This document shows, in pieces, positions 23,501 to 62,262 of a stretch of 64,000 bases of DNA. The stretch covers positions 1,178,001-1,242,000 of the forward strand of contig OZ336903.1 of assembly GCA_965287045.1 (NCBI GenBank). The letters are read 5' to 3'. The notes beneath the pieces are model-generated. The model saw only the letters and a list, made by a program, of their open reading frames with translations, was not told the origin of the DNA and searched no databases. The position numbers and the translations under genes were made by a program. Numbering within the stretch: the first letter of the stretch is position 1; each line of letters starts with the position of its first letter. This stretch comes from Carcharhinus amblyrhynchos. Lineage: Eukaryota.

Positions 23501-26500
23501 GGTAGATTTGAAACCTGCATTCTTGAGATAACAAGGAACTGATAACCATTTTAGCAGCAACTTGTGTGAGTTCTCAGGCAAGGTCGCTATCTGAAAGGTC
23601 AAGTCGCTGCCAGCCTACTTGCATATTTACAGTATTTCTGATTTGTTCCGATATATATGTGTGTGAACTGGTGAAACATCTGATGAATTTTTCATGACAA
23701 AATGGGTCAGTGAAAAAAGAAAGAAGGTAATGCCTGCTTAAAACATTCTGTGTTGAACAATTAATTACCACAATTACATTATTCGGATGAAGCAAAACAG
23801 CAATGAGTCGGTCAGATCCAAACAGCAAACGGTCGGATTATATTGTCATTGGAAATATGAATATCTTGAAGATTTGTAAACGCTACATTATTTATTTTAC
23901 CTCTGATTAGAAACTTTTTTTTTCTAGAGCATAGATCAATGTCCCTGTCAATGGCAGTTAAAATACAGGTTTTAATTAAGCTTCAAATTATGCAATATTT
24001 TGAATTTTGCAACGAGGTGAATATGTTTAAGAAATATAATCTGTCACTTTCATTATCCTTTTAGAACATAAGCAGTTAAGACTCTCTGGCGGTGGAAGCC
24101 GATGTGCGGGCCGACTGGAGATTTATCACAATGGGATCTGGGGCTCAGTTTGTTATGATTCCTGGGATCTGACAGACGCTGACGTGGTTTGCAAGCAGCT
24201 GGGTTGTGGACATGCATTGCAGCTTCCTCTTCATATATCGGCTGCACCTGACATAGGCCCAATTTGGTTGAATGAGCTGGAATGCTCCGGGGGTGAATCA
24301 TTTCTCTGGGAATGTCCCCATGCATTGTGGGGTAAACACGACTGTCGTCATGAAGAAGATGTGAAGATCATGTGCTCTGGTAAACGTCAAACTTCAGTTA
24401 CATTAGAAGTTTCATATATAAGATATGATCCTGATAAACCTAAGGACAGCGTTTACCACCGCCCTTCTGTCAAATTCCTCTGTGTTATTTATTCTGGACA
24501 CCATTACCGTTACAATATTTCTATATCCTACTTTTGATGTGTTGCCTTATCTTCCTTTATCCCACATTTCCTGATATAAATGTATCTTCAAATTAATATC
24601 ACTGACTGTAATGATCATGAGCTTTAAATTTCATCAGTTTATGAGTAAAATGTTCCACTTAACTACATTACTTGGCAGAGATATTAGATTTAATGGGTGG
24701 TATGGTAGCACAGTGGTTAGCACTGCTGCTTCACAGTTCCAGGGTCCTGGGTTCAATTCCCGGCTCGGGTCACTGACTGTGGAGTTTGCACATTCTCCTC
24801 GTGCCTGCGTAGGTTTTCTCTGGTTGATCCGGTTTTCTCCCGTAGCCCAAAGATGTGCAGGTTTGGTTGATTGGCCGTGCTGAGAAGTTGCCCCTTAGTA
24901 CCCAGGGATGCGTAGGTTAGAGGGATTAGTGGGTATAATGTATAGGATACAGGGGTAGGGCCTGGGTGGGATTGTGTCCAGTGCAGACCTGATGGGCCGA
25001 AGGGCATCTTTCTGCACTGTAGGGTTCTATGATCTTTATTTTTCAAGAAGCCTGCTGTCATTTTATTCTTCGCATCAAAATTCATTCCAGTACGAAAACT
25101 AAGTTGTCATTGGCATGTGTATCCTGCCATGTATTAGCATTTTGATACATACTTTGCAATCCTCCTTAGTATTATCTATATAAACCAGTTTGCTGCCACA
25201 ACAGACGCTCTTTATTTTACTGCCGATCACAAAGTCCAGCTGCGTTTTGTAACTCGCAAGAGCAGCGACCGCAGTACCAAACTGTGAACCTCACACCGGA
25301 AGATTTGGTACTTTAATAACGTGAAACGTCACAGACTTTTGAAATTCGATCTTTACACTGACTGTCTGGTTCCCCATTGTCTTTCGTGGGCTTTCATTAT
25401 GGAACTTGACGCAGCTCTGCTGTTAACCCGCGTAAGAAGCCTGACAACACCAGATTTAAGTCCAACCAATTTATTTGATAGTAAACTCACAAGCTTTCGG
25501 GGTTTGACCCTTTGTCAGGTGACGAAGGAGCACCTGACGGAGGGGAAAACCCCGAAAGTTTGTGAGTTTACTATCAAATTAATTGGTTGGACTTAAACCT
25601 GGTGTTGTCAGACTTCTTACTGTGTTTACCCCAGTCCAACGCCGGCATCTCCACATCGTCAATCCGCACACAGAACATCGAGAGCATTGCCCTTTTCACC
25701 ATTGCTGCAAGCTTTACAAATAAGTCAATCGGGTTCATCGTTCAAATGTTTTGATTAAAATTCAATGTTGCCTATTCTTGGATATATCTGCTTTTCTGTG
25801 ACGTTTACGAAATAATTATGACAAATTGCGAACTCAACTTAGAAACATATATACATATCTTTATATCCAAAGTGCGGGGAATCAGAATTGATAATTACAT
25901 CACGTGGTTATTTATGATTTGCTTCACAGAGCACAAAGAGCTGCGTTTGGTGAACGGAAAGCATCGCTGTGAGGGCCGAGTGGAAGTTTTCTATAATGGG
26001 TCTTGGGGAACAGTGTGCTCTGTAAACCTGGATTTCGATGATGGAGCAGTCATCTGTAAACAGTTAGGTTGCGGCACACTCGTTTCCATCGACTATTATG
26101 CTCGCACATTCGGAGTAGGAACCGGACCTATTTGGCTGGATGAGATGGAATGCCGTTCACACGAATCGACCCTTTGGCAGTGCCAGGCAGACCCGTGGGG
26201 TCAACACAACTGTGATCATTGGGAAGATGCAGGTGTCGTTTGTTCAGGTAACACAATCAATCATTCTGCTTACAGGTGAGATTTGAAATATTGATGTAGC
26301 TCATGGCGTCAACATGTTTGTCCTATCAACAGGGGGAGATACACCGAAACAAGAGCAGGAAACTGTGAACAGCTGCAAAAGAGGATCAGCTGTTTTCCTA
26401 ACTTTAATGCAACAGCTCTCTGATTTTATTCCTCTCTTGTCCTATATCAAGATTACTGATTTATTTATTATCCTTGAAAAATGTCGGCCAAAGTTTGCGG

Positions 26501-27606
26501 TTGGCTGGAGGTAACAGCAGCTGCTCCGGGAGAGTGGAGATATGGTGTAATAGAGCCTGGGGCACGGTGTGTGATGATTCCTGGGATATGAACGATGCCA
26601 GTGTTGTCTGCAGACAGCTGGGCTGTGGCTCTGCTCTCGAGGCCACAGGAGGGCGCTCTTTTGGGCAGGGTACCGGTACTATCTGGCTGGATGAGGTGAA
26701 GTGCACCAGAAGCGAATCCTTTCTGTTTGACTGTCCTTCATCATCAGCTCAGTCTGACTGTGATCACAAGGAAGATAGAATCATAGAACCCTACTGTACA
26801 GAAAAAGGCCCTTCGGCCCATCGATTCTGTACCAAACATAAGCCCATCCATGCCCTACCCCCATATCCCTACATATTATACCCACTAATCACTCTAACCT
26901 ACGCATCCCTAGGCACTGACGGACAATTTCTGAGCATGGTCAATCAACCTAACCCGCAGATGTTTGGACTCTGGGAGGAAACCGGAGTACTCAGAGGAAG
27001 CCCACGCAGACACGAGGAGAACGTGCAAACTCCACACAGACAGTGACCCAAGCTGGGAATCGATCCCAGGACCCTGGAGCTGTGAAGCAGCAGTGCCGAC
27101 GTGCTGCCCAGATGTCAGTGTGATTTCCTTCGTTAAATATCCCACTGAGCGGTGCAGTTTGGGTCTGTGTGACGTTGTCTGGCCCATCTTCGCTGAATAT
27201 AATCCATGTTTTCAGATGTCTTTCTGATCAACAATGCAAGTAATTGTGGCTTTTTTTTTTACCATATTTTCACAGGTCCGGCATTATCTCCGACCGTTCT
27301 GCCCACACCTTCAGGTATGTCAGAGTAATAAATATCAATCACTATTATGGCTAATTTTACATTAGGATAAATAATTGTCACACGTTGGCATTGTCTTCAT
27401 TTTATCAATTCTTACCGACAGTCTGGGTGTTTGGATAATCCTGTATTTAAAAATATTGTGGACATTTTAACTCACAACGTCCTTGAGTATTTCATCAAGG
27501 ATATGAAGATGAAAGCACCTCCATCCCTCTGGTGATCTGCATATCACTCGGTGTCCTGTTGATCTGTGAGTTAATCGTCCTTTTGGCAGTAATGCAGAGA
27601 AGATAA
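14536..27606 (+). CDS. Gene A: CD163/WC1-like group B SRCR protein; predicted signal + 6 SRCR (+ linker + TM, stop at 27604-27606); 3' part degenerate
   Basis: Exons 14536-14581, 16883-16915, 17697-18020, 20218-20532, 21548-21862, 22180-22494, 24065-24379, 25930-26247, 27276-27314, 27500-27606 join in frame with canonical splice sites. Confidence 0.75.
16883..16915 (+). CDS. Gene A exon 2 (C)[10 protein letters not shown]
   Basis: tttcag|GC...TCAG|gtaatc, 33 nt, 1 nt different from the gene B copy. Confidence 0.85.
17697..18020 (+). CDS. Gene A SRCR domain 1 (lacks C2/C7)
   Basis: [25 protein letters not shown]...DAGVICS; ttacag/gtaaaa. Confidence 0.95.
20218..20532 (+). CDS. Gene A SRCR domain 2
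   Basis: CSGRLEIH...GTVCD...DVSVICS, 8 Cys, 315 nt, ttcag/gtgagt. Confidence 0.95.
21548..21862 (+). CDS. Gene A SRCR domain 3
   Basis: [26 protein letters not shown], 8 Cys, 315 nt. Confidence 0.95.
22180..22494 (+). CDS. Gene A SRCR domain 4 (lacks C2/C7)
   Basis: [27 protein letters not shown]...GVLCS, 315 nt. Confidence 0.95.
22933..23176 (-). mobile_element. tRNA-derived SINE (V-SINE type, cattgcagtgttaa tail variant)
   Basis: gaggaaacccacgcagacacagggagaatgtgc core; gcagcagtgctaacca head. Confidence 0.85.
24065..24379 (+). CDS. Gene A SRCR domain 5
   Basis: [30 protein letters not shown]...DVKIMCS, 315 nt. Confidence 0.95.
24694..25033 (+). mobile_element. HE1-like shark SINE
   Basis: ggtagcacagtggttagcactgctgc head, gggttcaattcc B box, tggagtttgcacattctc core, ctgcactgtagggttctatg tail. 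Confidence 0.92.
25432..25657. mobile_element. Penelope-like inverted-repeat fragment with degenerate minimal hammerhead-ribozyme motifs
   Basis: ~90-bp arms 25432-25521 and 25531-25620; cacCTGACGGaGGGGaaaaCCCCGAAAgtttgtg. Confidence 0.75.
25930..26247 (+). CDS. Gene A SRCR domain 6
   Basis: [26 protein letters not shown]...DAGVVCS, 318 nt. Confidence 0.95.
26333..26389 (+). pseudogene. Gene A linker-1 pseudoexon (donor GT>CT)
   Basis: TCAG|ctgttt vs TCAG|gtgttt in gene B (52649-52705). Confidence 0.8.
26487..27132 (+). pseudogene. Gene A SRCR7 pseudoexon: acceptor AG>CG, SINE insertion, C8>S, donor GT>TT
   Basis: Alignment to intact gene B exon 52243-52551. Confidence 0.9.
26777..27109 (-). 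mobile_element. HE1-like SINE inserted in the SRCR7 exon, candidate TSD AGAT
   Basis: atagaatcatagaaccctac tail ... gtgctgccc head; AGAT at 26773-26776 and 27110-27113. Confidence 0.93.
27276..27314 (+). CDS. Gene A linker-2 exon (G)[12 protein letters not shown]
   Basis: cacag/gtatgt intact, 39 nt. Confidence 0.75.
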
Positions 27607-27616
27607 TCAATAAAAG
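27500..27616 (+). CDS. Gene A transmembrane exon [35 protein letters not shown] (TAA 27604-27606; TCA in gene B)
   Basis: caag/gtaagg, 117 nt, ~23-aa hydrophobic stretch. Confidence 0.85.
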
Positions 27617-30723: not shown

Positions 30724-31349
30724 TCCATGGAAGCTGGATAAAGCTCAAATGGAGCAGGCAGGTTTGTGGATTTGGGAGCAAGATCAGATCAGCCATGATC
30801 ATATCGGATGGTGGAGTGGCCTCAAAAGGTTGAATTGCCCCAAACTCGCTCCCAATTCCTGTGTTCCAATGTGTTCATTACTGATTTAGCAATTGACATT
30901 TTGTTTCCACTTACAATTGGATCGAAGCAAAAAAAAAATCCAGAAAAAATGAAAGAAACAATAGGCATAAAGACACATCGCCAATGTAAGCAAGGAGCAA
31001 CAACGGGGGACATGTGTTAGACTCAGTGGAGTAATGAACTGAGCCAAGAGAGATGTGGAGTCGGGGGTGGTGGAGGGGGGGGGGGGGGGGGGGGGCGGAG
31101 ATGATGTTATTAGTTAAGATTGCAAAGGAGTACTAGTATATCAGTGATTAATGGAGTGTTAATTAACACAGAAAAATATTCAATCAAATCAGAAATAAAA
31201 TGGCCAATTTAGAATTTCTTTCAGCTATTTTCGAAGGATAGTTTTTATAGACAGTCAACAATGCTGAAATGAGAGAAATATTAATCAATTGTTTGTTTCA
31301 GTTTATACCAGAGGTAACACTTAAGTTCATGACTTCACAAGATGTGAAT

Positions 31350-32460
31350 GGGAATGACATCAACAGGTAGAAACTAAAACGAACCAGAACATTAAACTCA
31401 TTGGAACATTTTCATCCATGCATTTTTAAAGAAAGGAAAATTCTACCAAAAGCAGAATTGCAGTTTTTCACCGAATCATTACTAAAGGGTGTAATGCCAG
31501 AGTCCTGGCGGGAAGCAAATATTGATGTTGTGATTAGGAAATGAAAAGGACAATGTCAAGAAAATGGGTGTCAGTTTCCTGGACATAAACGGGAGGAAAG
31601 CGAATCAATTGTTGACAAAAGGAGGAAAGAAAATATCTACATTAAAGCAATGTAAAGGAGTCAGTGCACCTTTCATGGTGAGATCCTACGCACAATCAAC
31701 ATCATCAAAATCTCACAAAAGTCACCACAGCACAAACCGTAAACACCAGAAAAGTATTTTTATTGTGTCCAATATTCGTTCCGTAATTGCCATTTTATAC
31801 ACCAATGAATGGGACAATATCCTTTCAGCTCTTTCTTCAGTAAGTTCCAATCTTTCTTGTATGTCAAAAGTTTGCAAATCCGTGTTACATCCTAACACTT
31901 CAATAGAAACATAAAGCTGACACTCCGGTGCCGTGCTGAGCGAGTTGCTGCACACTTGGCGATATGATCTTTCATAGGAGCCATTCACCCAATGGCCAAG
32001 ATGCATTTTCTCTTGGTTATAAATGATCAGCTGACCACGCTAGAAAAGACTTGAGTTAGCAAATTTTCCCGGAACAAAATTTACCATTTGAACAAATTCA
32101 CAAAGTCAGATAAAAGTGTATTTCTATAGACGGAAGGTGATTCAAATCGGTGTTCCGGCACTGGGATCATTTGTTTATAATTGATCTAATCAAACTACGT
32201 TTTAACGATGATAGCATTTTTTTGGACAGAAAGGAAGCCAATGGGATTACAAGAAAACATTCATGAACTTGTTCTAACGGACACATGATTTGTAAACAAA
32301 TTCAATATATTTAACTGATAATGAGTACTTCGCGAGAGCAAACAAAAAACAATTTAATGTATTATACTGAAGAAGGAATTAAATGTCATAGTTCATAAAA
32401 TTGATTAAAAATACACAGATGCCCAATTAATTCGAAGCAGGCAGAAACGTTGACCAGAAG
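31350..32460 (+). mobile_element. Very old CR1-like LINE remnants (partly shared with 48000-48300)
   Basis: Degenerate [18 protein letters not shown]-type ORF2 segment. Confidence 0.55.
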
Positions 32461-32725
32461 CCGAAACAAACACAAAAGTTTATTTCTAAAACAATAGAGC
32501 GGATACTGCTGGACAATCTCAGCAGGTCTGGACAGAGAACAATGTTCACCAGAAGCCAAAACAAACACAAGAGTTCATTTCTAAAACAATAGAGGGGAAA
32601 ATGCTGGACAAACTCAGCAGACCTGAAGAGAGACCAAATTCAACACTTTGAGTGCCAATGACTCGTTTTCATGCCTGACCTGCTGACTCTGTCAGAGATT
32701 TTCTGTTTTGTTTCCGATTTCAAGC
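32453..32725. repeat. ~95-bp local tandem duplication overlapping a short Penelope-like palindromic remnant
   Basis: accagaagcc.aaacaaacacaa.agtt.atttctaaaacaatagag occurs twice; ctcagcaggtctgg ... cctgacctgctga. Confidence 0.65.
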
Positions 32726-33112
32726 TTTGCCACATTGTATTTACAAAATTACAGATGGAAAATTATAAACATTTATAAATTATAAATGGCATCATTGCTC
32801 TGATGCCATTTTGTTTGGATTGCATGGTTCTTAACAGGATTTTGTAAAACGACACAGGAATCAGGGGAGGGTTCAAAAGAATTTACAAATACGTTAGCAG
32901 GTAGGCGGGCAGAGACCTGCCCGGAATGGCTGAACAGAGTTTAAAAAAAAACACGAGAACTTACTTGGCCTATTAGTGCTCTTTTCTGGTGAATTGCACG
33001 GGGCTCCCATCAGAGGAAAGTAAAAACACATTTATTAGTCACAAGTAAGTGTAAACTAACACTGCAATGAAGTTACTGTGAAATCCCCAGTGGTTTCACT
33101 CCTTCCGACCGT

Positions 33113-33433
33113 ACGGCGGCGCAGTGATGAGTGCTGCTGTTTCATAGCTCCAGGACCTGGGTTTGATTATCGGCTTGCGTTATAGTCTGTGTAGAGTTTG
33201 CACCTTCTCCCCATGTCTGCATTGCTTCCCTTGATGAGCTCTGAATTTATCCCACAGTCCAAAAGATGTCCGTATTCGGTTGATTAGACATGCTAATTTG
33301 CCGCTTAGTGTTGGTCACAGGGACAGGCAATGTTCATATGTTTGGCTGCAGAGATAGAACCTGGGGAGGATGGTTGTCAGTGCAAACTCGTTGGGCCAAA
33401 TTGTCTCACTCTGCACTGTAGGGTATCTATGTT
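33113..33433 (+). mobile_element. Diverged HE1-like SINE (preceded by an inverted SINE tail at 33030-33090)
   Basis: gtagagtttgcaccttctccccatgtctgc, cccacagtccaaaagatg. Confidence 0.85.
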
Positions 33434-33843
33434 TTGATGGATTTTCATCTCTGAGGATAAAATCCGGGGATAATATGGTAGGGATGAAATGATTCTGGAT
33501 CATAAAAACCGGTCCACTGACTCAGATGGAATGTTTTTTTTCCTCACATATTCCCGGTTCTCTGATATCTTACACATTATTTGTCCTAAGGGACTGGACA
33601 TTTCGGATCCAGAGTAACATATTTCCTCCATTAAGATAGTGCTGGTTCTTCAGTTTGGATCACTGCAGTCAGTCTGCTGACTGTTCTGCCAAATTGGTGG
33701 GATGTTTAAACGCCAGGATATTTCCACAGAGGCGATTAAGTTGTTGTGATCTCGACTAACGCTCTGAGTCACTCTCTATCACGATAACATTGTAACAACT
33801 TCACAAAATAATTGCCAACTAACAACTATTTTGTGCTTACCAG

Positions 33844-33954
33844 TTTCTTCAAGCATTGACTCCTTCAATCAGATTGAGTATTACACCAGTCACAGTTTAG
33901 GAAACACAGATCCTGGACCAGAATATCCTGAAGTGAATTCTTCCTCAATTCAGG
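33844..33954 (+). pseudogene. Gene A cytoplasmic pseudoexon 2 (donor GT>GG)
   Basis: [30 protein letters not shown]; CAGG|ggaggt vs |gtaggt in B. Confidence 0.8.
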
Positions 33955-34476
33955 GGAGGTGGAAGTTCACATGCGACCATGTCCTTCCGAGCCTTCTCAC
34001 TCTGTAATATCTAAAATAGCGTTTGAAATCTCCAAACGTGTACTCCATGACGTGTACACCATGATGTGTGCACCATGATGTGTACACCATGGAATGGCAG
34101 GGCCAAATGCCTCAGATATTGCAGAATGATTTGAATTACAGAAACTTTGAGTCTCAAACAATATGTTCTCATTGTTCCAAGCAATGGAAATTAGATTTTT
34201 AAAACGAAGTTCCATTTATTTCCCCTTTCTTGGTTGTTATTTGTGGACTGGTTTGTGGGATCGGTGACACATTGGGAACGGTATACATTTGAACGAAAGT
34301 TGGAAAAAAGAAACAAAATTTCGCCCAATAATCTCTATGCTCCAATCCACTGGCCTCCATGCCACAACAGATCAAAGTCTCAGCCCCGGAAATACTGCGG
34401 CAACAGACATTAAACGATATGATTCTAATTGTCCTTCATTACTAATTAAGTTCAATTCAAATCCTTTCCCTCTCAG

Positions 34477-34606
34477 CTCCTGTTTTGACAGACTCTGACG
34501 ATGCTGAGAGTGAAACCATTGACTCTGATGGGGCACTTGCTGCTGAACCGGGACCCTGACGGTATCTTCACATTGACAAGTTCCAGCGGTGATCTGGACA
34601 CTCTGG
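34477..34606 (+). pseudogene. Gene A cytoplasmic pseudoexon 3 (Y>S in GYDDA, net 2-nt deletion)
   Basis: 130 nt vs 132 nt in gene B 46920-47051. Confidence 0.8.
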
Positions 34607-34667
34607 GTGAGATAATTCATTGATTGTTCCCTATCTTAGACAGTGGGTTGGGATCAGTACACAATAA

Positions 34668-41460: not shown

Positions 41461-41689
41461 ATGGTTTTAAGTGGGGGTAGTTTGATCCCTGGGGTCAAGG
41501 TGCTGCGGTGACAATTCACTCTCTGGCTTTAAACACTCTGCAATGCAGAGACTGGAGAGGAGTGTACACCAGGGGGCAGCATTGCAGCTTCTTCCCCCCA
41601 TTGAAACTGGGATTGTTGCTCCATCTGCTGCACCATCCCCACCACATCCACCGGGGACAATCTGGACAATGGGCTGCAGGGAGACCCAT

Positions 41690-41936
41690 CGCTGGCGGCC
41701 ATCTTGTATTGCTGGAAGAGTCAGCCGGCGGCCATCTTGCGTTACCAGGGGAGATGGCAGGCGGCCATCTTGCGTTGCCAGGGGAGACGGCCGGCGGCCA
41801 TCTTACGTTGCCAGGGGAGACAGCAGGCGGCCATCTTGCGTTGCCAGGGGGACGGCAGGCGGCCATCTTGCATTGCCAGGGCAGACGGCAGGCGGCCATC
41901 TTGCGTTGCCAGGGGAGACAGCAGGCGGGCATCTTG
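41690..41936. repeat. 33-bp GC-rich minisatellite, 8 copies of GGCGGCCATCTTG (YY1-like motif)
   Basis: Cores at ~41694, 41727, 41760, 41793, 41826, 41858, 41891, 41924. Confidence 0.93.
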
Positions 41937-43335: not shown

Positions 43336-45327
43336 ATTCCCTTTTCAACAACTTTATTGACAACGAGGCGTTGTGGGCCTGACACAGCGGAATACAGCAA
43401 GCTCACAGGGAGAAAAAAAAACGCGAGCGAAGTGGGCCGATATGTAAACATTTCCATCTTAATCTGCGCTCAGAAAATGGTGTCGGAATTGTCCAGTTTG
43501 ATCACCATTTCCAATATTTATGTATTTGTGAAATAACGGTCTTCAGCTAATTAATGTTTCTGTTTTAATGCCATAACGACCGAAGGATGGTTAGAATTGC
43601 CGGGCGATCGTACAGGGGCTTATCCGGAGGAAATGAAAACTAACGGATTACTGGATATTAAATCTTGTGGAATTAAAATGAAAAGGAGACATGGGAATCT
43701 GAGCAGCATCTTCATACCTCCCGCTACACAACGGTCTCCAGTGTTTAGGGTAGTGTTGGGATGCAATCGGGTTGTATTTAGTTGCTGGGGAAATGCAGTG
43801 GAGCACCGCCCCCACCCCCACACCCACCCACCCACCCACCCCACCTCCGCCCCCATGATGATCTAGAATATAACAAATGAAGAAAACGGAAACAATCCAT
43901 GTATTTATCCGCCGTAATCTTTATTTAATGGCATAAGAAGTGAAGCTTTTACAAAATGAACGTCAAATCTATTTGACCAAAAAAAAACTTGAATAAAATC
44001 TTGAATTATAATCACGGCTCCTTTCCACAATGCAATGCAATGTAATACCTTTAATATGGACAGTGCAATACTCGACACACTTTCCATGTTGTTTTTCATT
44101 ATTAATTGAACAAAACGTTGATTCTTTCATATAAAACAAGGAAAGAAATAATAATTCACAAAATACACAACATGAAATAATAACATATTGATACAAAAAC
44201 AACTGCGCATTTTTGTGAGATTAAAGCATATTAAACGTGGCGATATTTGTGGAAAACTTAATGGGCGTCCCCATTGATTTAAGTCACATGTCTGAGGACG
44301 TCACATCCTGAATTTTGAGATGGCTGTGACCTGAAACGGTAAAAGAAAAATGAGTGAGAATTACAACCATTTCCACAATTAATTCAACACTACACAAGTA
44401 ATTGTATTACATTCCAGTTCAACTGTCAGTTTCTTTCTATGAAATACACACTGCACATTCTCTGCGATACTTTCAATGTAATGTATCACTGAAAATACTG
44501 CAAGAAATCACAAAGCAGAAACCATGTGGGACAGGTCACACCCCGACACTGCGGCATTCCCATTGGAAAATGTCATAAAATACGGTTTAACATTATATTG
44601 TATATGTTTAAACTTCGGAAATGAATGGTCACTGCCCAAGGTCGCTGCTTATGCAAGGGGCACTGTTATTCTTGGCTGGCGTGGAAGGAACCGACAAGAT
44701 TGGATTAATACGGATTTACTGTATACTGTGGAGGGTAGACACATTTTTGGTGAACTTTGGGCTGAAAGTAGATTCCTTGTTTAATACAATTCTGTGCATT
44801 CGCGACAGGAACTAAACCCAAATGCCAATTATTCTTTGATCGGCTGCAGACCAGAGCGAGTATATTCCACACAAGAGGGCGGGAGACTGCAGTAATAATC
44901 AGAGGTGATAATCAATTCAGAAAGCAGTCACAGCATGGGATTCCATGAAGGAGATCAGAAATGACAGGGATTTCCTCACAGTATCCAGGAAATGCTAAAT
45001 TTCAATCTACTTTGTTCATTATTTTAGCAATCAATTAAACATTGCACTTTTGATTGGGTGAATTTTAATGGCAGGTTGGAAACAGGTTTTCCCAGCCTCT
45101 CAGCTGGAGCTAGTTAATTAGAAATCAGGATTAATGCAGCTTCAGAAGCCTTGAATGTCAGGCCCAAAAACAGAAGGATCTTCAGTGTGGCGTTGTCTGG
45201 AGCTTCGAGAAACAGGGAGTCACAAGGACTGAGTTTGAAGGAATGATGTAATTTAATTTGAAGATTTATTTCAATCTGAATATCAGTCTGAATCCAGATT
45301 GTTTTAAATTAATGAAAACAAAATAAG

Positions 45328-45540
45328 GGCAGCACGGTGAGACAGTGGTTAGCACTGCGGACTCACAGCATCAGGGGTTTTCAATCACGGGTTTTCAATC
45401 CCCATCTCATTGTGTGAAGTTTGCATGTTCTCTCCGTGTCTGCGTGGGTTTCCTCCGGGTGATCCAGTTTCCTCTCACAGTCCAATGAAGTGCAGGTTGG
45501 GTTGATTGGCCATGCTTAATCGCCCCTTGGTGTTAGGCAG
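45328..45540 (+). mobile_element. SINE 5' part
   Basis: gggcagcacggtgagacagtggttagcactgc ... gtgtctgcgtgggtttcctccggg. Confidence 0.88.
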
Positions 45541-45804
45541 ACGAGTAGGGAAAATATTTAGGGCCTGGCGTGGAGGTGCCATTGATGTTGGGCTGATTTC
45601 GATCCTGTTGGGGTAATGGCTTCTCATGTGATGGGAGTAACATCCCAATTCATAGCACCATATATGGCTCCATTGCACGAGATAGAAGCAGAAAGTGTGG
45701 GAATGCTATCCTTATATGAGATTCAAATGTCAGGGAAATTGGAAGACATTTGTTTGGCCGCAAACGATTCTCCAGGCTGGGATGTTGCGCCTCTGGTGTT
45801 CTGC

Positions 45805-45848
45805 TCAAGGGTTTCTCAGGGCAGTTGGAAGATATTCAGCAGGGGGCG
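45805..45848 (-). CDS. Candidate last coding exon of gene B, (A)[13 protein letters not shown]
   Basis: ctcttcag acceptor in phase 1; the alternative is read-through of the previous exon (LGEINL*). Confidence 0.35.
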
Positions 45849-48800
45849 CTGAAGAGCCACGTTTCATGATTTGCATCGGTATTAATCAATTAAGTTAAAA
45901 AAAACTAGATGCAAAAGCGGATTATGGGGATAGGAAGTCAGTTTAAAATTATTACCTCAAATCCGGTGATTTCAGACTTACTAACAGCTTCTCCTATTGG
46001 GCAAAGTTAATGTTGCCGGAATACCAGCTGAGTACCTGGCTGGGAATCTGGTTCTCTGGTGACGGGTTTTAGATTCCTGGGTCGTTGGGAGAGGTTCAGG
46101 AGGTGTGGGGGCGGTGGGAGGGGGAGGGGGCGGTGGTGGTGGGGGATGAGATCAATACAAAGTGAACGTGTTGTACCTGGTTGGGACGGGGAATGCTGTC
46201 CTGTGGTGAGTGTTTGATAGTGTGGTTAGGAAGGGATAAAACAGAATGACAAGTTGATGGGAACACAAAGTGTGTGACATAGGAAAGAGAAACACGAGAA
46301 ACAATAATAAAGAGAGAACAGTAAGATGCAACATCGGAGCTCGGATAATCAACGACGAGAGGCAAATATAGTCACTGCACAAATACTGATTAATAATGGG
46401 AAAAGAAACATCGCTGCCACTATGCACATTGGTATTCGGTAGAATAAGAGGTTATCTCATTGAAACATAGGATTGTTATGGGGATCGACAGGATAAATGC
46501 TGAGAGGATGTTGTCACCCCTCCCCCCACCCACCCACACATTAGAGATTCTAGCACCAGACTGCGCAGAATGAGATGAAAGGGAACCAACTTGAGACTGA
46601 AATTTGAAGTGTTTTTTTTTCTTCTCTCAACATGTTGTGAATCTTTGGAACTCGTTGCCACAGAGAGCTGTGGAGGCAGAGTCCTTGTGCACATTTAAGG
46701 CTGTGATTGGTAGATCATTAATCAGTAAAGGAATGAAGGGATCCGGGGAAAGGGCAAGAGAGTCAATATGATGAATGTCTGATTAGTCACGATCCACTGA
46801 GGGGCGGACCAGGGTCGAGGGGCTGAACGGCCTAATCCTGTTCCAATTTCTTATCAACTTATTGTGTACTGATCACGGTCGACTGTTTAAGAAAAGGAAC
46901 AATCAAAGATTTATCTCACCCAGAGTGCTGAGATCACCGCTGGAAGTTGTCAAAGTGAAGATACCGTCAGGGTCCCGGTTCAGCAGCAAGTGCCCACTCT
47001 GAGGGTCAATGTTTTCAGTCTCAGCATCGTCATAGCCTGTCAAAGCAGGAGCTGAGAGGGAAATGTATTTGAATTGAAATTAATTAGTAAAAAAGGACAG
47101 TTAGAATGATCTCCTTAAATGTCTATTTCCACAGCAATTATGGAACAGATATTGATTTATTGTGGCTTGGAGACCAGTGAATTAGATTATGGGGAATCAC
47201 TGGACGAAATTGTGTTTTTTTTTTCAATTTTAGTTCAAATTTATACCGTTCTAATGAGCCACCGATCCCACAAACCAGTACACAATTCAGAGCCAAGAGA
47301 GGCTTCTGGGGAGATACATGGTAATATCAATTGTTCGGAACAATGATAAACATTGTTTCAGAATGAACGTTTCTGTAACTGAAACCATTCTGCAATGTCA
47401 GAGCTACTTGGCACTGTCATTTCATGGTGTACACGTCATGGTGTACACGTTTGGAGATTTCAGAAGCTATTTTAGATATTACAGAGTGAGAAGGCTTGGA
47501 TGGAAATGGTAGGATGTAAACTTCGACCTACCCTGAATAGAGGAGGAATCCACCTCAGGATATTCTGATCCAGGATCCGTGTCTCCCAAACTGTGACTGG
47601 TGTAATATTCAATCTGATTGAAGGAGTCAATGCTTGAAGAAACTGGCAAGCACAAAATAATTGGTTAGTTGGCAAATGTGTTACTGAGCCGTTGCGATGT
47701 TATCTTGGCGGACAGTGATTCAGAAAGTCAGAGCCGAGATCACAACAAGTTCATCGCCTCTGTGGAAACATCCTAACATTTGATCATGGCACCAATTTGG
47801 GATAACAGTCAGCAGACTGACTGCAGTGGTCCAAAGTGAAGAACTAGCACTACCTTACTGGACAATGGGTGTCACTCTGGCTTCGAACTGTCCAATCCCT
47901 TAGGGCAGATAATGTATCAGATATCAGAGAACCGGGAATTTGTAAAAAAAAACAATTACATCTGGGCCAGCTTTTACGATCCAGAATCACTTTTCCCTGT
48001 CGTTTTATTCCCCCTGTCTTGAACTGATATTTATTTGATGGCATTCTCCTTTCACTTTCTTCATCACAGCATCACTATTTGCTTTCCACCAGCAGTCTGA
48101 CATTACACCCTTTAATAATGATTCTGTGAAAAGCTGCAATTCTGCTTCCGCTAGAATTTTTATATCTTTGAAAATGCATGGATGGAAATGTTCCAATGAG
48201 TTTAATGTTGTTATTTCGTTTTTGATTCTACCTGTTGATACCATTCCCATTCACATCTTGTGAAGTCAAGAACTTGAGTTTTATCTCTGGTATAAACTGA
48301 AACAAACAATTGATTAATATTTATGTAATTTCAGTATTGGGATTGTTGGTAAAAACTAAACCTCGAAAATACCTGAAGTAAGTTCTGAATTGGCCATTTT
48401 ATTTCTGTTCGATTGAATATTTTTCCCCTTTAATTAACACGCCATTATTCACTAATATAGTAGCCCTCGTTTGTCGCCTTAACAAATTACATCATCTTTT
48501 TGTTTCCTGATTCTACATCTCGTTTGGCTCAGTTCACGGCTCCACTGAGTCTCACACACTTCCACGACTGATTTTGCTTGCTTGCATTGGCGATTTGTCT
48601 TTACACTTAATGGGTTTCATTTTTTCTTTTTTATTTGGTTGTTCTTGTTTTTTTTATATTTTCATTCAGTCCAAAAATGGATTAAAATACCCATTTTAGA
48701 AAAATAAAACTGTCGTACTCCAGATATTTTCCCAAATACTAATCTATCCTGTAATTAGCCGCTGAGTGTGCATTAATGCATTGAATTCATTTACACAATC

Positions 48801-51800
48801 AGTCACATGTTTTAAATATTATTATTTAGATCAGACTTTGATGTGTGCAAGGTGCAAACCAGTTGGAAATTGGAAACAGCTACTTTGTTCTTCTTAAACA
48901 GAAGGGAAAATTATCCTTGAACAATAATGAACATTGGTAATCTGATCAGGACACAAATCCTCTGAAGATAAAACGGTCATTTAAAATGTCTCCTTTCTAC
49001 ATGAGGACGGTGAGGTTAATGCTTCCCTTGAGCGTGGCTAAAGTGGGTAAAGAATAAGCGGCATTTTTCCATGTAGCTTGGGTTAAAAAAACACAAACCT
49101 GAAGCACGGTACTGAGTGTCTTGCCTGGAGGGAGGAATGTCATCTATTTCTTCATAAATGGCTTGGTATATAAAAGGACGTGGATCCCAACCTCCCGCAA
49201 CAGGTTCTGTTGGAGGAAAATAGGGACAATTAGCATATTGATACATTCTGTTCCTGTATATCTGTCCATGATTTTTATTGATTTTTATCTCCCCCTATGA
49301 CGAGGTTAGATTCAAACTAGGATCTCACAGAATTTATTTTGTTTCTCTGCATCATGAATCCAGTGTTGATGCCACTGCCTCCATCACAAGGAGCACTGAG
49401 GCATTTAGAGACCAGTGAAAGTCAGCGCATAAGATTGGAATCAAGAAAATTCGGTGCGAGTTCAGACTCTTGCAGTAGTTTTGTTTATCTGTTCAAAACT
49501 AGTGGTGCAAAAGGCAGACATTCATCAGATTCCATGGCCATGTTTTAACATGGAGCAGGTCAGTAACCTGTTACCAGAGGAGCCCAACTCCATACCAACC
49601 ATGGCCGGACAGTAATACCTCCCGCTCTCACCGCTTGGGATTGTTGCCTTGGAAGGGTTTTACAGGAAGTGCTGACACTTTGTTCCTATAAAGTCTTGGG
49701 ATTGAACCTGGTGCGTTTGTCTCAGAGATCAGGATGCTATTCACCGGCATCGATCTTGTAATATTAGTTGGACAGTTTTGCTGGGATGCAGTATTGGAAT
49801 TGATTCTTGTGGAAAATCATACGATCACGTCTCAAAATGGGTCGATTACTGTTCGAGAACTCGGCACGCCCAAACACTCAGTGTTAGTTTGCAACCAATT
49901 GTAAGTGGAAACAAAATGTCAGTTGTTAAATAGTTAATGGACACATTTCAACATAGGAATTAGAAGGAACATAAGAATTAACAGCGAAATTGGGCAATTC
50001 AGCCATTTGAGCCCGTTCCACCATTCTATACGATCATCGCCGATCATATCCAGCTCGATTTGAGCTTTATCCAGCTTTCATTGAGTCAGATAATTGTTTA
50101 TTTCTTGAATCTGCTGACTGATTCTGTCTCCCCTCACTCTGGGCCGTCTTTCCACAAGATCACAACCATCTGAGAGAATGTATCCCTCACTTCAGCTTTG
50201 GAACTCCTTCCTCTCACTCTAAATCTATGAGTCTTTGTTGTAGACTATCCAACAAAGAGCAATATCGGCTCAACATCCACCTCATCAATCTCTTTATCAT
50301 TTTGTAAACCTCAATCAGAACCCCCCGAATTTTTTTGAGCTCCAGCAAGTACAAGCTCAACTTATTCAAATGTTCTTCATACATTGACCCTTTCATTCCT
50401 GGAATCAATCTGATGAGCATCGTCTGAACTGCCTCCAGTATCAGCACATCCTTCATCATGTCTGGAGACTAAATATGGACACGATTCTCTTGGTGCAGTC
50501 TCACGCAGGCCTTATCCAGAATTAACAACATTGCTTTACAAGTAAATTCCTGTCCATTTGCAGTAAATGCCAAAATTCAAATTGGCGTTCTTATAAAATG
50601 ATGCACTTGTAAATTCACGTTCTGTCATTCAAGCACACGGAGACCCAAATCCCTCCGCATTGACAGACTGTGAATATTCTTCCCAATGAAACAATCATTT
50701 ACCCTTTTCATTGTTCTTTTTTTCTGCAAAAATGAATGTCCACACAAATATCCATATCACTCTCCTTTTGTCACATTCTGGCCCATTGTCCTAAGCTGTC
50801 AATACTCATCTGTAATCTCTATAATCTCATCAGAACCAGCTTTCCCACTCATATTTTGATCATCCGCAAAGTTTGCAATGTTTCACTCTGGCCTCAATCG
50901 CAGGTCAGTGAACTGTTGAAAACTGAACGTTGCATCTTGCCTCATATTAAATTTTGCTCGCTATCCAAAGAAGGGCCTTTTTATCCCTATCCTGTGCTTT
51001 CTTTCACTCAACCAATCCTCTCTCCATGACAATATTCTGGACCCAACCTTTGGGATCTAACACTCTTGCCTAATGCCTTGAAGCATCCAGATATGCCACA
51101 TCCACATGATCCCTATCATTCATCTCGCTGTTTAAATCCTCAAAAAAAACTCGAACAAGATTGTCAAACACAACTTATGCTTCATAAAATCGTGCTGACT
51201 GTGGCGAATTCCGCTTTGTTTTCCATTGATCAGTTATCTCCTGACAATGACAGACTGCAAGGACTTCCCAACATAGAGGTCAAAATAAGGGGTTTACATT
51301 TTGCCACTTTTTGCTTCTCTGTTTTTTTTTGAATAAATTTGTCTTGTCACCGTGTTTCCAATCCAGAGATATCTTTCCGAAATCAAGGAAAAATTGGAAT
51401 AATATAACTAATGCACCCACTATCTCTGCTGACACGTCCTTTAATACGAAAGGGTGCAGGCCATCGAAGTTCAATTTGTTCCATTCAAGTTTAAAATGAT
51501 TGCAACAAAACAAAAATTCTATTCCGTACCTCATGCTTTGGTGGATGGTGTAGGAATATGAATGTAAATTACTCCCTCATTGAAATGTAATATTTTGCTA
51601 TTGCTCATGTGACTCGAAATAAATTAAAGACCAATGATCGGTTAATTTGTTTTTGAAATGTACCCAAGTACATTTGCAAAACGGCAGAGAAGCCCCTTAT
51701 GATGTATGAAGCAACATCCATGACTCAGCGTGGGTTCAGGGATATGATTCGGGCCTTACCTTTTATTGATGATCTTCTCTGCATTACTACCAAAAGGGCG

Positions 51801-54800
51801 ATTAACTCACAGATCAACAGGACGCCGAGTGATATGCAGATGACCAGAGGGATGGAGGTGCTTTCATCTTTATATCCTTGATGAAAGATTCAAGGAAGTT
51901 TGTGAGATAAAGTGCCCACAATGTTTTAAATACTTACATGATTATCAAACACTCAGACTGTCGGTAGAAATTGACAAAAAAAAGGCAAAACAAATGTGTG
52001 GCAACTATTAATTGTAATGTAAAATGAGCCGTAATAGAGATTGATATTTATTCCTGAGACATACCGGAAGGTGTGGGCAGAACAGTTGGAGATAATTCCC
52101 GACCTGATGGAGATATGGTGAAAGGGAGACAATTATTTACATTGTTGGTCAGAAAGACATTTGAAAACATTAATTGATTTCAGCAAAAATGGGCGAACAG
52201 CGTCACACAGTCCCAAACCACACCGCTCAATGGGACACTTACCGGAACAAATCACACTGGCATCTTCCTTGTGATCACAGTCAGACTGAACTAATGCTGA
52301 AGGACAGTCAAACAGAAAGGATTCGCTTCCGGTGCACTTCACCTCATCCAGCCAGATAGTACCGTTACCCTGCCCAAAAGCGGCCCCTCCTGTGGCCTCG
52401 AGAGCAGAGCCACAGCCCAGCTGTCTGCAGACAACACTGGCATCGTTCATATCCCAGGAATCATCACACACCGTGCCCCAGGCTCTATTACACCATATCT
52501 CCACTCTCCCGGAGCAGCTCTTGGTACCTCCAGACAAGCGCAAACTTTGTCCTGAATTTGTTAAAGATAATAAATCAATTATTAACCCTGATGTAGCACA
52601 AGAGAGGAATACAATCAGATCGCTGGTTTATTAAAGTTGGCAAAACACCTGATTCTCTCTTGCAGCTGTTCACAGTTTCCTGTTCTTGCTTCGGTGTCCC
52701 TCGCTCTGTTGATAAGGCAAACATGTTGACTCCATGAGCGACATCAATATTTCAAATCACACCTGTAAGTAGAATGATTCATTGTGTTACCTGAACAAAC
52801 GATGCCTGCATCGTCCCAATGGGTACAGTTGTGTTGACCCCACGGGTCTGCCTGGCACTGCCGAAGATTCAACTCCTGTGAAAGACACTCGATATTATCC
52901 AGCCAAATAGGCCCGGATCCCACTCCGAATCGGCGAGAGCCATAGTCAATGAAAACGGTTGGGCCACAGTTAGCCTGTTTACAGATTACAGTAGCATCTT
53001 GCCCACCCAGGTCTTCTGAGCACACTGTTCCCCACGTCTCATTGTAGAAAACTTCCACTCTGCCTTCACAGCGATGCTTTCCGCTCACCAAACGCACCTC
53101 TTTGTGCTCTGTCAAACAAATGATATATACCCAGATGATATCTTCTTTAACCAGAGTGTCTAATATCTGTTGTGCCAGTTGAGGTCACCGTTTGAGAGAT
53201 ATATTTCGCAAAGATCACAAAAAAAGTTGAATTCGAACGATATAATCAAGAATATGCGACATTGAGATTTAATGGGAAGCTTTGGGTGATGGACTCAATC
53301 AACTCTGGCCAAATCCTCCCTCATGTCATTGTAGTTACCTTTATTTAACTGTAATCTCGCTCTATCAGATTCCAACTTCTCCCTCTCAAACTCTCGGGTA
53401 AATTCTGTCATGTTGTGGTCACTGCTCCCAAAGCGCTCCTTAAGTTCCCTAATCAAATCTGCCTCATTGCACATCACCAAATCCAAAATTACCTCCTCCC
53501 CCGCTCTGTCACAAACTGGACCAGAAAGCCCTTTCTTAGACAGTCCACAAACTCCTTTTTTCTGGGATTCACTACCGAACTGATTTCCCCACTTGGACTA
53601 TGGGAAGTATATGAGGGATATAGAAAAAGAAGGGAACGCGATGAAATGGACGGAACAAAGACTTCAGTGACAGTTATGTCCAGAATAAGAAAGTGAGTCT
53701 TTGTGCCAAATAGCCTTCCAAAGTGTGTGTGTTTTTAACGTAATTTAGGAACTCATCTTAACATAGAACATCGAACACCACAGCACAAACAGGCCCTTCA
53801 GCCCACAAGTTGTGCCGATCACATCTTATGTATGAAGCTTCGGTTATAAGTGCAGAAAGTGGGACAGTTACCAGAGCACATGATCTTCACATCTTCTTTA
53901 TGACTACAGTCGTGTTTACCCCACAATGCATGGGGACATTCCCAGAGAAATGATTCACTCCCGGAGCATTCCAGTGAATTCAACCAAATTGGCTGTGTGT
54001 CAGGTCCAGCCAATGCAGGAAGAGGAAGCCGCAATGCATGTCCACAACCCAGATCTTTGCAAACTACGTCAGCGTCTGACACATCCCAGGAATCATCACA
54101 AACTGAGCCCCAGGTCCTGTTGTGATAAATTTCCAAACGGCCCGCACATCGGCTTCCACTGCCAGACAGCCTTAACTGCATGTGTTCTAATAGAAACAAA
54201 ATGGGAGCGTCATGTTATACTTCCAATGCATACTCATCTCATTGTTAAATTCAAACTATTACATCATGTGAAGTAAATTAAAGCCTGTATTTAACTGCTT
54301 TTCACAGAGAGATTAATCTCCGCTCAAGAAAAAAAAATACTCTTACATGAAGTTACAATTTTAGACACTACGGATCATCCAGATATTCGCATTTCTGACA
54401 ATAAACAGTCCCATGGATTTCGGATTGGAACTGACCTGTTCATTGCTGCATGGTTTGCTTTACCAGAAATTGTGCCACTGTGGTAATTAATTGTTCCACA
54501 CAGAATGGTTTCAGCAAACATGTTTTTTCTTTTCACTACTACGTCATTTTGCCATGCATATTTCATCAGGTATCTCGCTAGTTCGCCCATTTATATCGGA
54601 TCAAATAAGAAATACTGCAAATAGTCTGGCAGCGACTTGACCTTTCAGACAGTGACCTTTCCTACGAATTTGCTGCTAATCTGCTCATCACTTCCTTGTT
54701 TTCTCAAAAAATGCAGATTTCAAAACTCTCCTGATGGCCGCCGCTCCAAAACACATGGATGCAATCAAAATGTTTCTAAATGAACCGCGCACATTCCAAC

Positions 54801-60800: not shown

Positions 60801-61460
60801 CAAGTGGAAGCGGGAATATGGATTGACAGTGGGAAACAGCCGCAAACTAGTTGGAAGTTGGAAGCATCATTCTGCTGCGTCAGGCAGGAGTGTGGATGGG
60901 AGCTTACTTGATTCCACCCACAAAACTCAGGACTGTTATGGTCCGGGATCCACCTGGACTAATATAGTGGAATCCCTATCCTAGTATGGATTCGAATCTG
61001 CCACCAGGGTCGAACCAGGTGGTTCACCCTGCTGCAACTGTCTGAATTGGACTGTCAGGTAGTCTCCAGCCCTCCCCGGGGCTATTGGCTGCGGCGAGTT
61101 TACGGCGGAACCCGTATATACCGGTGGTCAAACGGCTCGAATATTGCACTGCATTATGGTAACTAGAGAAGTAAAAATTTATTTCCAAACAGCAGTGGGA
61201 AATCTTTGCCTCTCGCCCTGCTCCTCGGCGATCTAATTTCTAAATTAGGGAGCAGAACTTAAACATTTACGTGAAAACATTGCAAGAACATTTTCATTCA
61301 CAACTGACAGGCAGACATTGAACCGAACCATTGAATACAAAGATACTGAAATTGTCTCAGGGATTTATCATTCAGTTGGATGGATTAGTGCAGTGAAATA
61401 TCAGATATGAACTTGGAGGGCGATTACCTGATGGATCAGCCTGGCTGTTCCCTGGTCTGC
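45805..61460 (-). CDS. Gene B: apparently intact CD163/WC1/SCART-like type I membrane receptor, 7 SRCR + TM + Tyr-rich tail (exon 1 outside window; last exon uncertain)
   Basis: Exons 61428-61460, 60161-60475, 57518-57832, 56226-56540, 55599-55913, 53872-54186, 52791-53108, 52649-52705, 52243-52551, 52065-52103, 51760-51876, 49099-49206, 47532-47642, 46920-47051 are all open, AG/GT, phase 1-1. Confidence 0.88.
46920..47051 (-). CDS. Gene B cytoplasmic exon 3 (A)[43 protein letters not shown]
   Basis: ctctcag/gtgaga, 132 nt. Confidence 0.85.
47532..47642 (-). CDS. Gene B cytoplasmic exon 2 (V)[36 protein letters not shown]
   Basis: gccag/gtaggt, 111 nt. Confidence 0.85.
49099..49206 (-). CDS. 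Gene B cytoplasmic exon 1 (E)[35 protein letters not shown]
   Basis: ccaacag/gtttgt, 108 nt. Confidence 0.88.
49950..51540 (-). mobile_element. Old degenerate CR1 (paralog of 27830-30880, without the nested insertions)
   Basis: GPDGLHP-like, [19 protein letters not shown] fragments. Confidence 0.85.
51760..51876 (-). CDS. Gene B transmembrane exon [39 protein letters not shown]
   Basis: caag/gtaagg, 117 nt. Confidence 0.9.
52065..52103 (-). CDS. Gene B linker-2 exon (G)[12 protein letters not shown]
   Basis: atcag/gtatgt, 39 nt. Confidence 0.85.
52243..52551 (-). CDS. Gene B SRCR domain 7 (9 Cys)
   Basis: [30 protein letters not shown]...DASVICS, 309 nt. Confidence 0.95.
52649..52705 (-). 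CDS. Gene B linker-1 exon (E)[18 protein letters not shown]
   Basis: aacag/gtgttt, 57 nt. Confidence 0.8.
52791..53108 (-). CDS. Gene B SRCR domain 6
   Basis: [26 protein letters not shown], 318 nt. Confidence 0.95.
53292..53590 (-). mobile_element. CR1 ORF2 endonuclease-region fragment; separate CR1 3'-tail fragment at 53759-53825
   Basis: [11 protein letters not shown]...FGSSDHNM; aacatagaacatcgaacaccacagcacaaacaggccc. Confidence 0.8.
53872..54186 (-). CDS. Gene B SRCR domain 5
   Basis: [30 protein letters not shown], 315 nt. Confidence 0.95.
55599..55913 (-). CDS. Gene B SRCR domain 4 (lacks C2/C7)
   Basis: 315 nt, near-identical to 22180-22494. Confidence 0.95.
56226..56540 (-). CDS. 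Gene B SRCR domain 3
   Basis: [27 protein letters not shown], 315 nt. Confidence 0.95.
57518..57832 (-). CDS. Gene B SRCR domain 2
   Basis: [18 protein letters not shown]...DVSVICS, 315 nt. Confidence 0.95.
60161..60475 (-). CDS. Gene B SRCR domain 1 (lacks C2/C7)
   Basis: 315 nt, tacag/gtaaaa. Confidence 0.95.
60593..60790 (-). mobile_element. Short CR1 3' end, specific to gene B, candidate TSD TGAGA
   Basis: Empty site at ~17580 in gene A; acagcacaggaacaggcccttc 3'UTR. Confidence 0.8.
61428..61460 (-). CDS. Gene B exon 2 (C)[10 protein letters not shown]
   Basis: tttcag/gtaatc, 33 nt. Confidence 0.85.
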
Positions 61461-61863
61461 CTGAAATGAAATTTTGAAAATTAGTCTTTGTTGGAACAGG
61501 AGATGAATGAAACTGTCAAAACCAAACATCACAAAGTCAACACCGAGGATCTGTGTTATTTCTTCACTATATGATTTCCAAGCATTTGCTGTTAAAAAGT
61601 TTTATTCAAATTACCTCACCCGCGATACTATGGCCTATGAACATCCTGGTCTCATTCCATTTTTTGAATATATTTTTAAGCACGTGTTACCGTATTCCCA
61701 AACAGGGATATTTTGTGTCAGTCAAATCTCCAAGTCTACTTTAGCCTCTAGTTTGCATAATAAAACCAAAAAGACAGTGATTCTTCTCTCTGGTTGGATT
61801 GCTGAAATTTATAACTTGACCCACAGAGTAACAATGATAAAGTTACTCGAATATCTCTGCACC

Positions 61864-62262
61864 AGGGGAGATCTCATTGAGACGTATAAGATGATGAATG
61901 GGATGGATAGGATAGAGGTGGAGAGACTCTTCCCGCTCAAAAAAGGCAGTAGGACTAGGGGGCACAGCCTCAAGATAAAGGGGAGGCGGTTTAGAACGGA
62001 GTTGAGGAGGATCTTCTTCACTCAAAGGGTGGTGAATCTCTGGAATTCTCTGCCCGTTGAACTGGTGGAGGCTGCCTCGCTAAATATTTTTAAGAAGCAG
62101 GTTGATGGGTTCTTGATAAGAGAGGGGATTAAGGGTTATGGGGAGAGGGCGGGAAAGTGGAACTGAGCCACAACAGATCAGCCATGATCTTATTGAATGG
62201 CGGGGCAGGCTCGAAGGGCTAAATGGCCTACTCCTGCTCCTATTTCTTATGTTCTTATGTTC
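61864..62262 (+). mobile_element. 5'-truncated CR1 in intron 1 of gene B
   Basis: RGDLIETYK...[14 protein letters not shown]; ttcttatgttcttatg tail; empty site at ~16470. Confidence 0.93.

Follow-up and report, generated by a model that had tools for sequence, protein, structure and literature searches.

An acidic residue within the predicted membrane helix of WC1-like scavenger receptors is retained across sharks and rays

Here we describe a family of WC1-like scavenger receptors in sharks and rays in which the predicted transmembrane (TM) helix carries an acidic residue, apparently gained in the elasmobranch lineage and then retained as Glu or Asp. We regard the residue as real, specific to this lineage and probably under selection, within a receptor family that is already known. 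It is likely to be a selected contact of some kind, and such a selected acid would most likely serve in assembly: the gain and retention of an acid in a membrane anchor suggest a putative partner protein bound within the membrane.

Results

Gene B is predicted to encode a WC1-like receptor

The window, the whole 64-kb stretch of shark DNA analysed here, contains an array of inverted paralogs, gene C (minus strand), gene A (plus strand) and gene B (minus strand), of which A and B are oriented tail to tail. Gene C, with its signal exon at 4504-4457 (minus), runs off the left end of the window. Among database proteins those of Mustelus asterias come closest, at 74-94% identity per exon.

Gene B has seven SRCR exons on the minus strand (60475-60161, 57832-57518, 56540-56226, 55913-55599, 54186-53872, 53108-52791 and 52551-52243), all open with AG/GT ends. 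Each of the seven matches PF00530 and encodes 6-8 cysteines, as tandem group B SRCR domains with one domain per exon. An open inter-domain exon (52705-52649, minus, AG/GT), a hinge exon (52065..52103, minus, AG/GT ends) and the TM exon (51760..51876, minus; 117 nt, phase 1-1, proper AG/GT ends) complete the extracellular and membrane portions, the open translation of the TM exon including [24 protein letters not shown]. The tail is specified by four minus-strand exons with AG/GT ends that carry YEEI and YDD: cytoplasmic exon 1 (49099..49206) has the YEEI motif, of the WC1/CD163c-alpha type, and the further exons, spanning 44283..47643, lie at about 47643-47532, 47051-46920 (YDD) and 44330-44283 (stop). 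Part of exon 2 is found at 61429..61458 (minus); no signal exon was found for gene B within the window, and it probably lies past the right end.

WC1 and CD163c-alpha genes are reported to have one domain per exon, a single TM exon and 4-6 tail exons (PMC2681482), and the tail motif Y-(Q/E)-(D/C/E)-(I/L) is described as common to both (PMC2906472). The exon plan of gene B, together with the YEEI at 49206-49099, which conforms to this motif, therefore matches WC1/CD163c-alpha as portrayed in those sources. A TM-plus-tail profile matches 'antigen WC1.1-like' proteins of Latimeria, Pelodiscus, Callorhinchus and Discoglossus, names that are automatic annotations. For the Mustelus homologue the best solved relative is CD163; the last three domains are collinear with CD163 residues 682-1101 in an alignment that ends before the TM segment. 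The predicted product of gene B is thus a seven-SRCR WC1/CD163c-alpha-like receptor with a YEEI tail. Identity between A and B is patchy among exons (81-97%), their TM exons being 94.7% identical, and pN/pS values between their exons, at about 0.3-1.1, are non-discriminating.

The glutamate lies in the core of the predicted helix

A sequence-only reading of this DNA had pointed to a Glu and two cysteines within the TM helix of both paralogs, and we find the peptide and the codons as it described them. In gene B the Glu codon (GAG, 51806..51808, minus) lies nine residues ahead of the Gln-Arg-Arg cytosolic boundary, with cysteines at positions -10 (51836..51838, minus) and -1 (51809..51811, minus) relative to it. 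In gene A the TM exon (27500..27616, plus) has the same Glu (GAG, 27568-27570), although this sharing carries little information given the near-identity of the two TM exons. Placement of the Glu had been set beforehand as a test. Helix windows were scored with two simple scales, Kyte-Doolittle and one of Hessa type, rather than with a trained TM predictor, and on these hydropathy scales the Glu falls in the bilayer core in every top-scoring window. In the best window of 21 residues it is residue 14, in the inner half of the gene B helix; its position in the top-scoring windows is 12-14 of 19, 13-16 of 21 and 14-16 of 23, and every top window of 19-25 residues includes it. When two copies of the 38-residue TM exon were predicted together without an alignment, the score was 0.08, which weighs on neither side.

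The acid is confined to, and retained in, elasmobranchs

Homologues were collected in several ways. A search with the TM exon, biased towards Glu, returned 8 proteins, all with Glu; a tail-only search added one Heterodontus protein with Val; and a TM-plus-tail profile built from five seeds, four of them with Glu, gave 70 and 42 matches, to which cluster look-ups added members and names. We examined 148 sequences, 146 of them stored and 2 taken from the window; 27 were without the family TM segment. The remainder were anchored without use of the Glu column and merged into distinct genus-plus-sequence rows. Excluded from these were the 2 window rows, one row with an unrelated helix, which belongs to fused model P0019, and 11 rows lacking a name, 2 of which have Glu.

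The column is acidic in 51 of the 57 distinct named elasmobranch rows (43 Glu, 8 Asp), the other 6 having Val, and the acid form occurs in all 15 elasmobranch genera, four ray genera among them; conservation across sharks, proposed in the sequence-only reading as a check, thus extends to both sharks and rays. Charged residues in these 57 rows number 51 at the Glu column versus only 2 at the other core columns (-12 to +7), which places the Glu column beyond chance. Gln or Asn is found there in 0/57. The 16 outgroup rows (2 chimaera, 3 coelacanth, 2 turtle, 1 frog and 8 teleost, the last from Labeo and poorly alignable) have Val, Leu or Gly at the column, an acid in none, and no charged core residue in any. 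Of the six Val rows, one is a divergent Heptranchias subfamily placed beyond the acid clade, whereas the other five are from Heterodontus and nest within that clade; the Heterodontus clade they form is expanded, and one other Heterodontus paralog retains Glu.

A quick tree of 74 rows places a single gain (branch support 90) and, among carpet sharks, several Glu/Asp swaps; it implies one loss, which becomes two if the long-branch model P0085 is taken separately. On a second tree, built with FastTree from 55 rows with the TM segment omitted and excluding both P0085 and the Val subfamily of Heptranchias, the acid column undergoes 5 residue changes and 1 class change, the neighbouring Cys 13 and 8. 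Overall we count a single gain, some four Glu/Asp swaps and a loss in the Heterodontus clade; in sharks and rays alike the acid is retained on a tree whose length amounts to 18 substitutions per site. Swaps are only between Glu and Asp, never to Gln, Asn, Lys, Gly or Ala, although Gln, Lys, Gly and Ala are each one base from a Glu codon. A rough neutral codon model gives P values of 0.037 for 3 Asp among 4 exits and 0.003 for 5 among 6 at kappa 2, and 0.07 for 3 among 4 at kappa 1; allowing one non-acid exit, P ranges from 0.07 to 0.0005 over the cases tried. The bias towards Asp would therefore be unlikely under this neutral model, but not extremely so. As the rows are related they represent few independent events, and Leu+4 and Val+7 equal the acid in class conservation. 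Read together, the trees and alignments indicate an acid gained in the elasmobranch lineage and subsequently retained as Glu or Asp.

Neighbouring residues do not reproduce known assembly motifs

The two cysteines singled out alongside the Glu are present, but a special role for them is not borne out. The Cys at -10 is family-wide (45/51 acid rows) and, as it is also found in 8/16 outgroup rows, is older than the acid; the Cys at -1 is labile (33/51 acid rows, 13 changes on the tree). The zeta disulfide cysteine is described as lying one turn above the acid (PMC13107469), and a zeta-like disulfide was rejected for either Cys on account of wrong spacing and the lability of Cys -1. At position -8, Ser in gene B (51830..51832, minus), Thr or Ser is found in 45/51 acid rows and 0/22 non-acid rows; on a helical wheel this position and the Glu are no more than 80 degrees apart. 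The Heterodontus clade without the acid has also deleted the -9/-8 residues; the hydroxyl residue and the acid have come and gone together, over about two independent events. Among the 51 acid rows, DxxxT-type support (D/E-xxx-T/S) is seen at i+4 in 1 and at i+3 in 6, and none has a Cys one turn above the acid, a Tyr-Thr staple, FxxDT (as FxxD/NT) or a Tyr in the TM core.

Paralog A is heavily damaged in its membrane-proximal and tail exons

The signal exon, exon 2 and SRCR exons 1-6 of gene A (14536..26247, plus) have open frames, cysteine counts as in B and intact splice sites; the signal exon, the six SRCR exons, the intact hinge exon (27276..27314, plus) and the TM acceptor would splice mutually in frame. 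The inter-domain and SRCR7 exons (26333..27132, plus) have the inter-domain donor changed from GT to CT, the SRCR7 acceptor from AG to CG and its donor from GT to TT, with the last Cys lost, and the SRCR7 exon is interrupted by a SINE-like repeat of about 335 bp (26777..27109, no strand assigned), the frame entering which stops at 27044. The TM exon carries a premature TAA (27604-27606) where B has TCA. In the decayed tail (30920..34607, plus) about 1.25 kb including the YEEI exon is missing at 30920/30925, the donor of the next exon is GG in place of GT, and the YDD exon has a frameshift and a Tyr-to-Ser change.

Gene A had been proposed to be a tail-less form able to compete with B. The stop in its TM exon is indeed there, but the gene is more broken than that proposal allowed, with the repeat insertion, four dead splice sites and loss of the YEEI exon. 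Competition requires A to be made; the gene reaches its TM exon only by skipping two exons, and a tail-less protein would arise only through such skipping together with escape from nonsense-mediated decay. A recent pseudogene is the account we rather favour. The other, a possible but less probable one, is a six-SRCR tail-less membrane protein in which SRCR6 is spliced to the hinge and which could be a decoy. The SRCR6-hinge-TM join is in frame, and the dead splice sites are concentrated in the inter-domain, SRCR7, TM-donor and tail set (4/10, against 0/18 elsewhere; Fisher p 0.01, with groups drawn post hoc), a clustering that softens a reading of A as plainly dead. Furthermore, A departs from the shark consensus at 5/278 conserved positions and B at 16/285. 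However, the dead SRCR7 exon is likewise barely diverged (1/36), so that recent death or gene conversion accounts for the intact part. An AATAAA at 27896 is without a counterpart there in B, but one such hexamer per 300 AT-rich bases is commonplace. The stop, moreover, lies upstream of the remaining spliceable exons, making the transcript a decay substrate unless it ends in the intron. Judged from the sequence, both a recent pseudogene and an exon-skipped tail-less receptor fit gene A, and a working decoy role seems unlikely.

Discussion

Gene B resembles WC1/CD163c-alpha (SCART1) in devoting a separate exon to each SRCR domain, in its inter-domain and TM exons, and in its multi-exon Y-E-E-I tail and multigene array; it differs in its acidic TM residue, where the coelacanth, turtle, frog, teleost and chimaera homologues compared have Val, Leu or Gly. 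With CD3, DAP12, zeta and FcR-gamma it shares an acidic TM core residue on a chain with cytoplasmic tyrosine motifs, but it has a seven-domain ectodomain and a YEEI tail instead of an ITAM, and its family is without both the DxxxT support motif of DAP12 and CD3 and the Cys and Tyr-Thr staple of zeta and FcR-gamma. Like CD16A/CD64 and CD300c it would be a type I receptor that binds ligand and has an acid in its TM helix, placed in the helix's lower half as it is in CD16A, but it differs from them in its unrelated ectodomain, the absence of FxxDT and a long tail of its own.

The reading we tentatively prefer is that B is a WC1/CD163c-alpha-like pattern-recognition co-receptor whose acid contacts a partner receptor at a basic TM residue. 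According to this model the carboxylate, probably paired from two receptor chains, would bind the basic residue, and B would, in the manner of CD3 or DAP12, supply its YEEI/YDD tail to the partner, yet would also bind ligand; B chains that stay unassembled would be kept back in the ER or degraded there. By analogy with WC1, the partner might be an antigen-receptor chain on gamma-delta T cells. A basic partner is favoured because only carboxylates are tolerated at the position and because B has tyrosines of its own, which give it the polarity of signalling modules (PMC13107469). Bovine WC1, furthermore, is reported to signal only when brought together with the TCR (PMC8356672). However, in the complexes so described the basic residue binds an acid pair usually backed by DxxxT (PMC13107469), which is present here in 1/51 acid rows, with a Cys one turn above in 0/51. 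Also counting against a basic partner are the lower-half position of the acid, the few independent events, the equal class conservation of Leu+4 and Val+7, the Glu in four of the five profile seeds, and an expanded Heterodontus clade that manages without the acid, as well as the report that WC1 occupies islands apart from those of the gamma-delta TCR in resting bovine cells and the two meet only after activation (PMC8356672).

Self-assembly and zeta-type assembly are close rivals to a basic partner. The acid might drive homo- or hetero-oligomers among paralogs, pre-clustering receptors without an outside partner, which we consider somewhat doubtful. Polar residues drive helix self-association, and the Val-to-Glu change in Neu activates by dimerisation. 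The large paralog arrays and near-identical TM helices are consistent with such oligomers, as are the up to six WC1 variants reported in single bovine cells (PMC8356672) and the cation-centred trimers that DAP12 helices are described as forming through their acids (PMC13107469); Gln and Asn, however, would be equally good for hydrogen bonds yet are never found, a weak objection given about four events. The sequence-only reading proposed either a Lys/Arg-bearing partner, by analogy with CD3, FcR-gamma and DAP12, or assembly of the SRCR proteins with each other, and the analogy is incomplete in that the ligand-binding receptors CD16A and CD300c use acidic adaptors. In CD16A a lower-helix FxxDT is described as binding zeta or FcR-gamma without a basic partner (PMC13107469), and the TM Glu of CD300c as assembling with FcR-gamma, E191V abolishing signalling (PMC12447643). 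A B receptor of this type, its acid hydrogen-bonded to a CD3-zeta or FcR-gamma dimer as an ITAM-coupled activating receptor, would fit the lower-half position, but the absence of FxxDT and of core Tyr, the tyrosine tail that B itself carries and a 2014 survey that did not find FcR-gamma in the shark genomes of that date (PMC4016189) make it unlikely.

Two further explanations dispense with assembly. The acid alone could set the surface level as a signal for retention, turnover, sorting or intramembrane cleavage, given that ER quality control is described as reading polar TM residues and degrading unassembled chains (PMC13107469); we give this little weight, since the known cases are coupled to assembly and the co-varying Thr/Ser would be unexplained. 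Least probable of all is a tolerated, functionless substitution that became fixed in an ancestor before duplication and gene conversion spread it. Val to Glu needs a single base change, the length and hydrophobicity of the helix suffice for insertion, exon identity between A and B is patchy and one clade lost the acid; against this, the residue has been kept over the full tree length with Glu/Asp swaps only, its neighbours changing freely.

It is conceivable, if rather improbable, that in sharks and rays a WC1-like scavenger receptor became a fixed component of an antigen- or NK-receptor complex, in which it would bind ligand, act as a signalling module and dock by a new acid-plus-hydroxyl TM face, with acid-free and tail-less paralogs of the same arrays tuning the output. 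The literature searched, which left most subscription journals outside its reach, yielded nothing on the TM acid and no description of a shark WC1-like family, here a large one with YEEI tails in cartilaginous fish. An assembly motif of this kind would be an addition that fits none of those tested (DxxxT, FxxDT or the zeta-type Cys). For the coupling of WC1-type co-receptors to the gamma-delta TCR, the shark family's combination of a gained, conserved acid with natural acid-free paralogs and a natural loss provides a single-residue handle for finding the partner.

Discussion

When the transmembrane (TM) exon of gene B is read on into the intron, it continues into a short open end (window 51759-51725, minus strand). 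The C-terminus of two retrieved Mustelus protein models, P0001 and P0016, is identical to this intronic end of B, and AATAAA is found at the end of the TM exon in A and B alike (window 51767). A short-tailed form may be made by B itself, or else the two Mustelus models are artefacts of read-through. At the other end of the exon, the acceptor is weak (window 51877-51890, minus strand). Several shark models (P0012, P0047 and P0009) lack the TM exon and retain the tail, and could possibly represent either soluble forms or mis-annotations. A further Mustelus model, P0019, in which an SRCR receptor is fused to a multi-helix, GPCR-like sequence, is probably a merged gene model.

The acidic residue of the TM helix and two TM residues have been lost in an expanded Heterodontus clade (P0010, P0025-P0037, P0056, P0058 and P0081-P0085), in which the tail of four models is short, frameshifted and devoid of YEEI. 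Heptranchias possesses both an acid-free subfamily (P0127 and P0139-P0143) and an acid-bearing one (P0007 and P0052). Because several members of each lie on an equally long contig, the two types may occupy one common locus.

A third paralog in the window, C (4457-4504, minus strand, and 1-1395), has its start in head-to-head orientation to that of A, and it continues past the left end. The window also contains LINE-like fragments (1560-2349, 29477-30721 and 61507-62166), a 588-base assembly gap (10712-11299) and, in the A-B spacer, a short tandem repeat (41688-41936). Between A (20218-27616) and B (57832-51760), exon identity is patchy, with 97% in SRCR4, 95% in the TM exon and 81% in SRCR6. 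This patchiness suggests that exon-wise gene conversion or shuffling has taken place among the paralogs.
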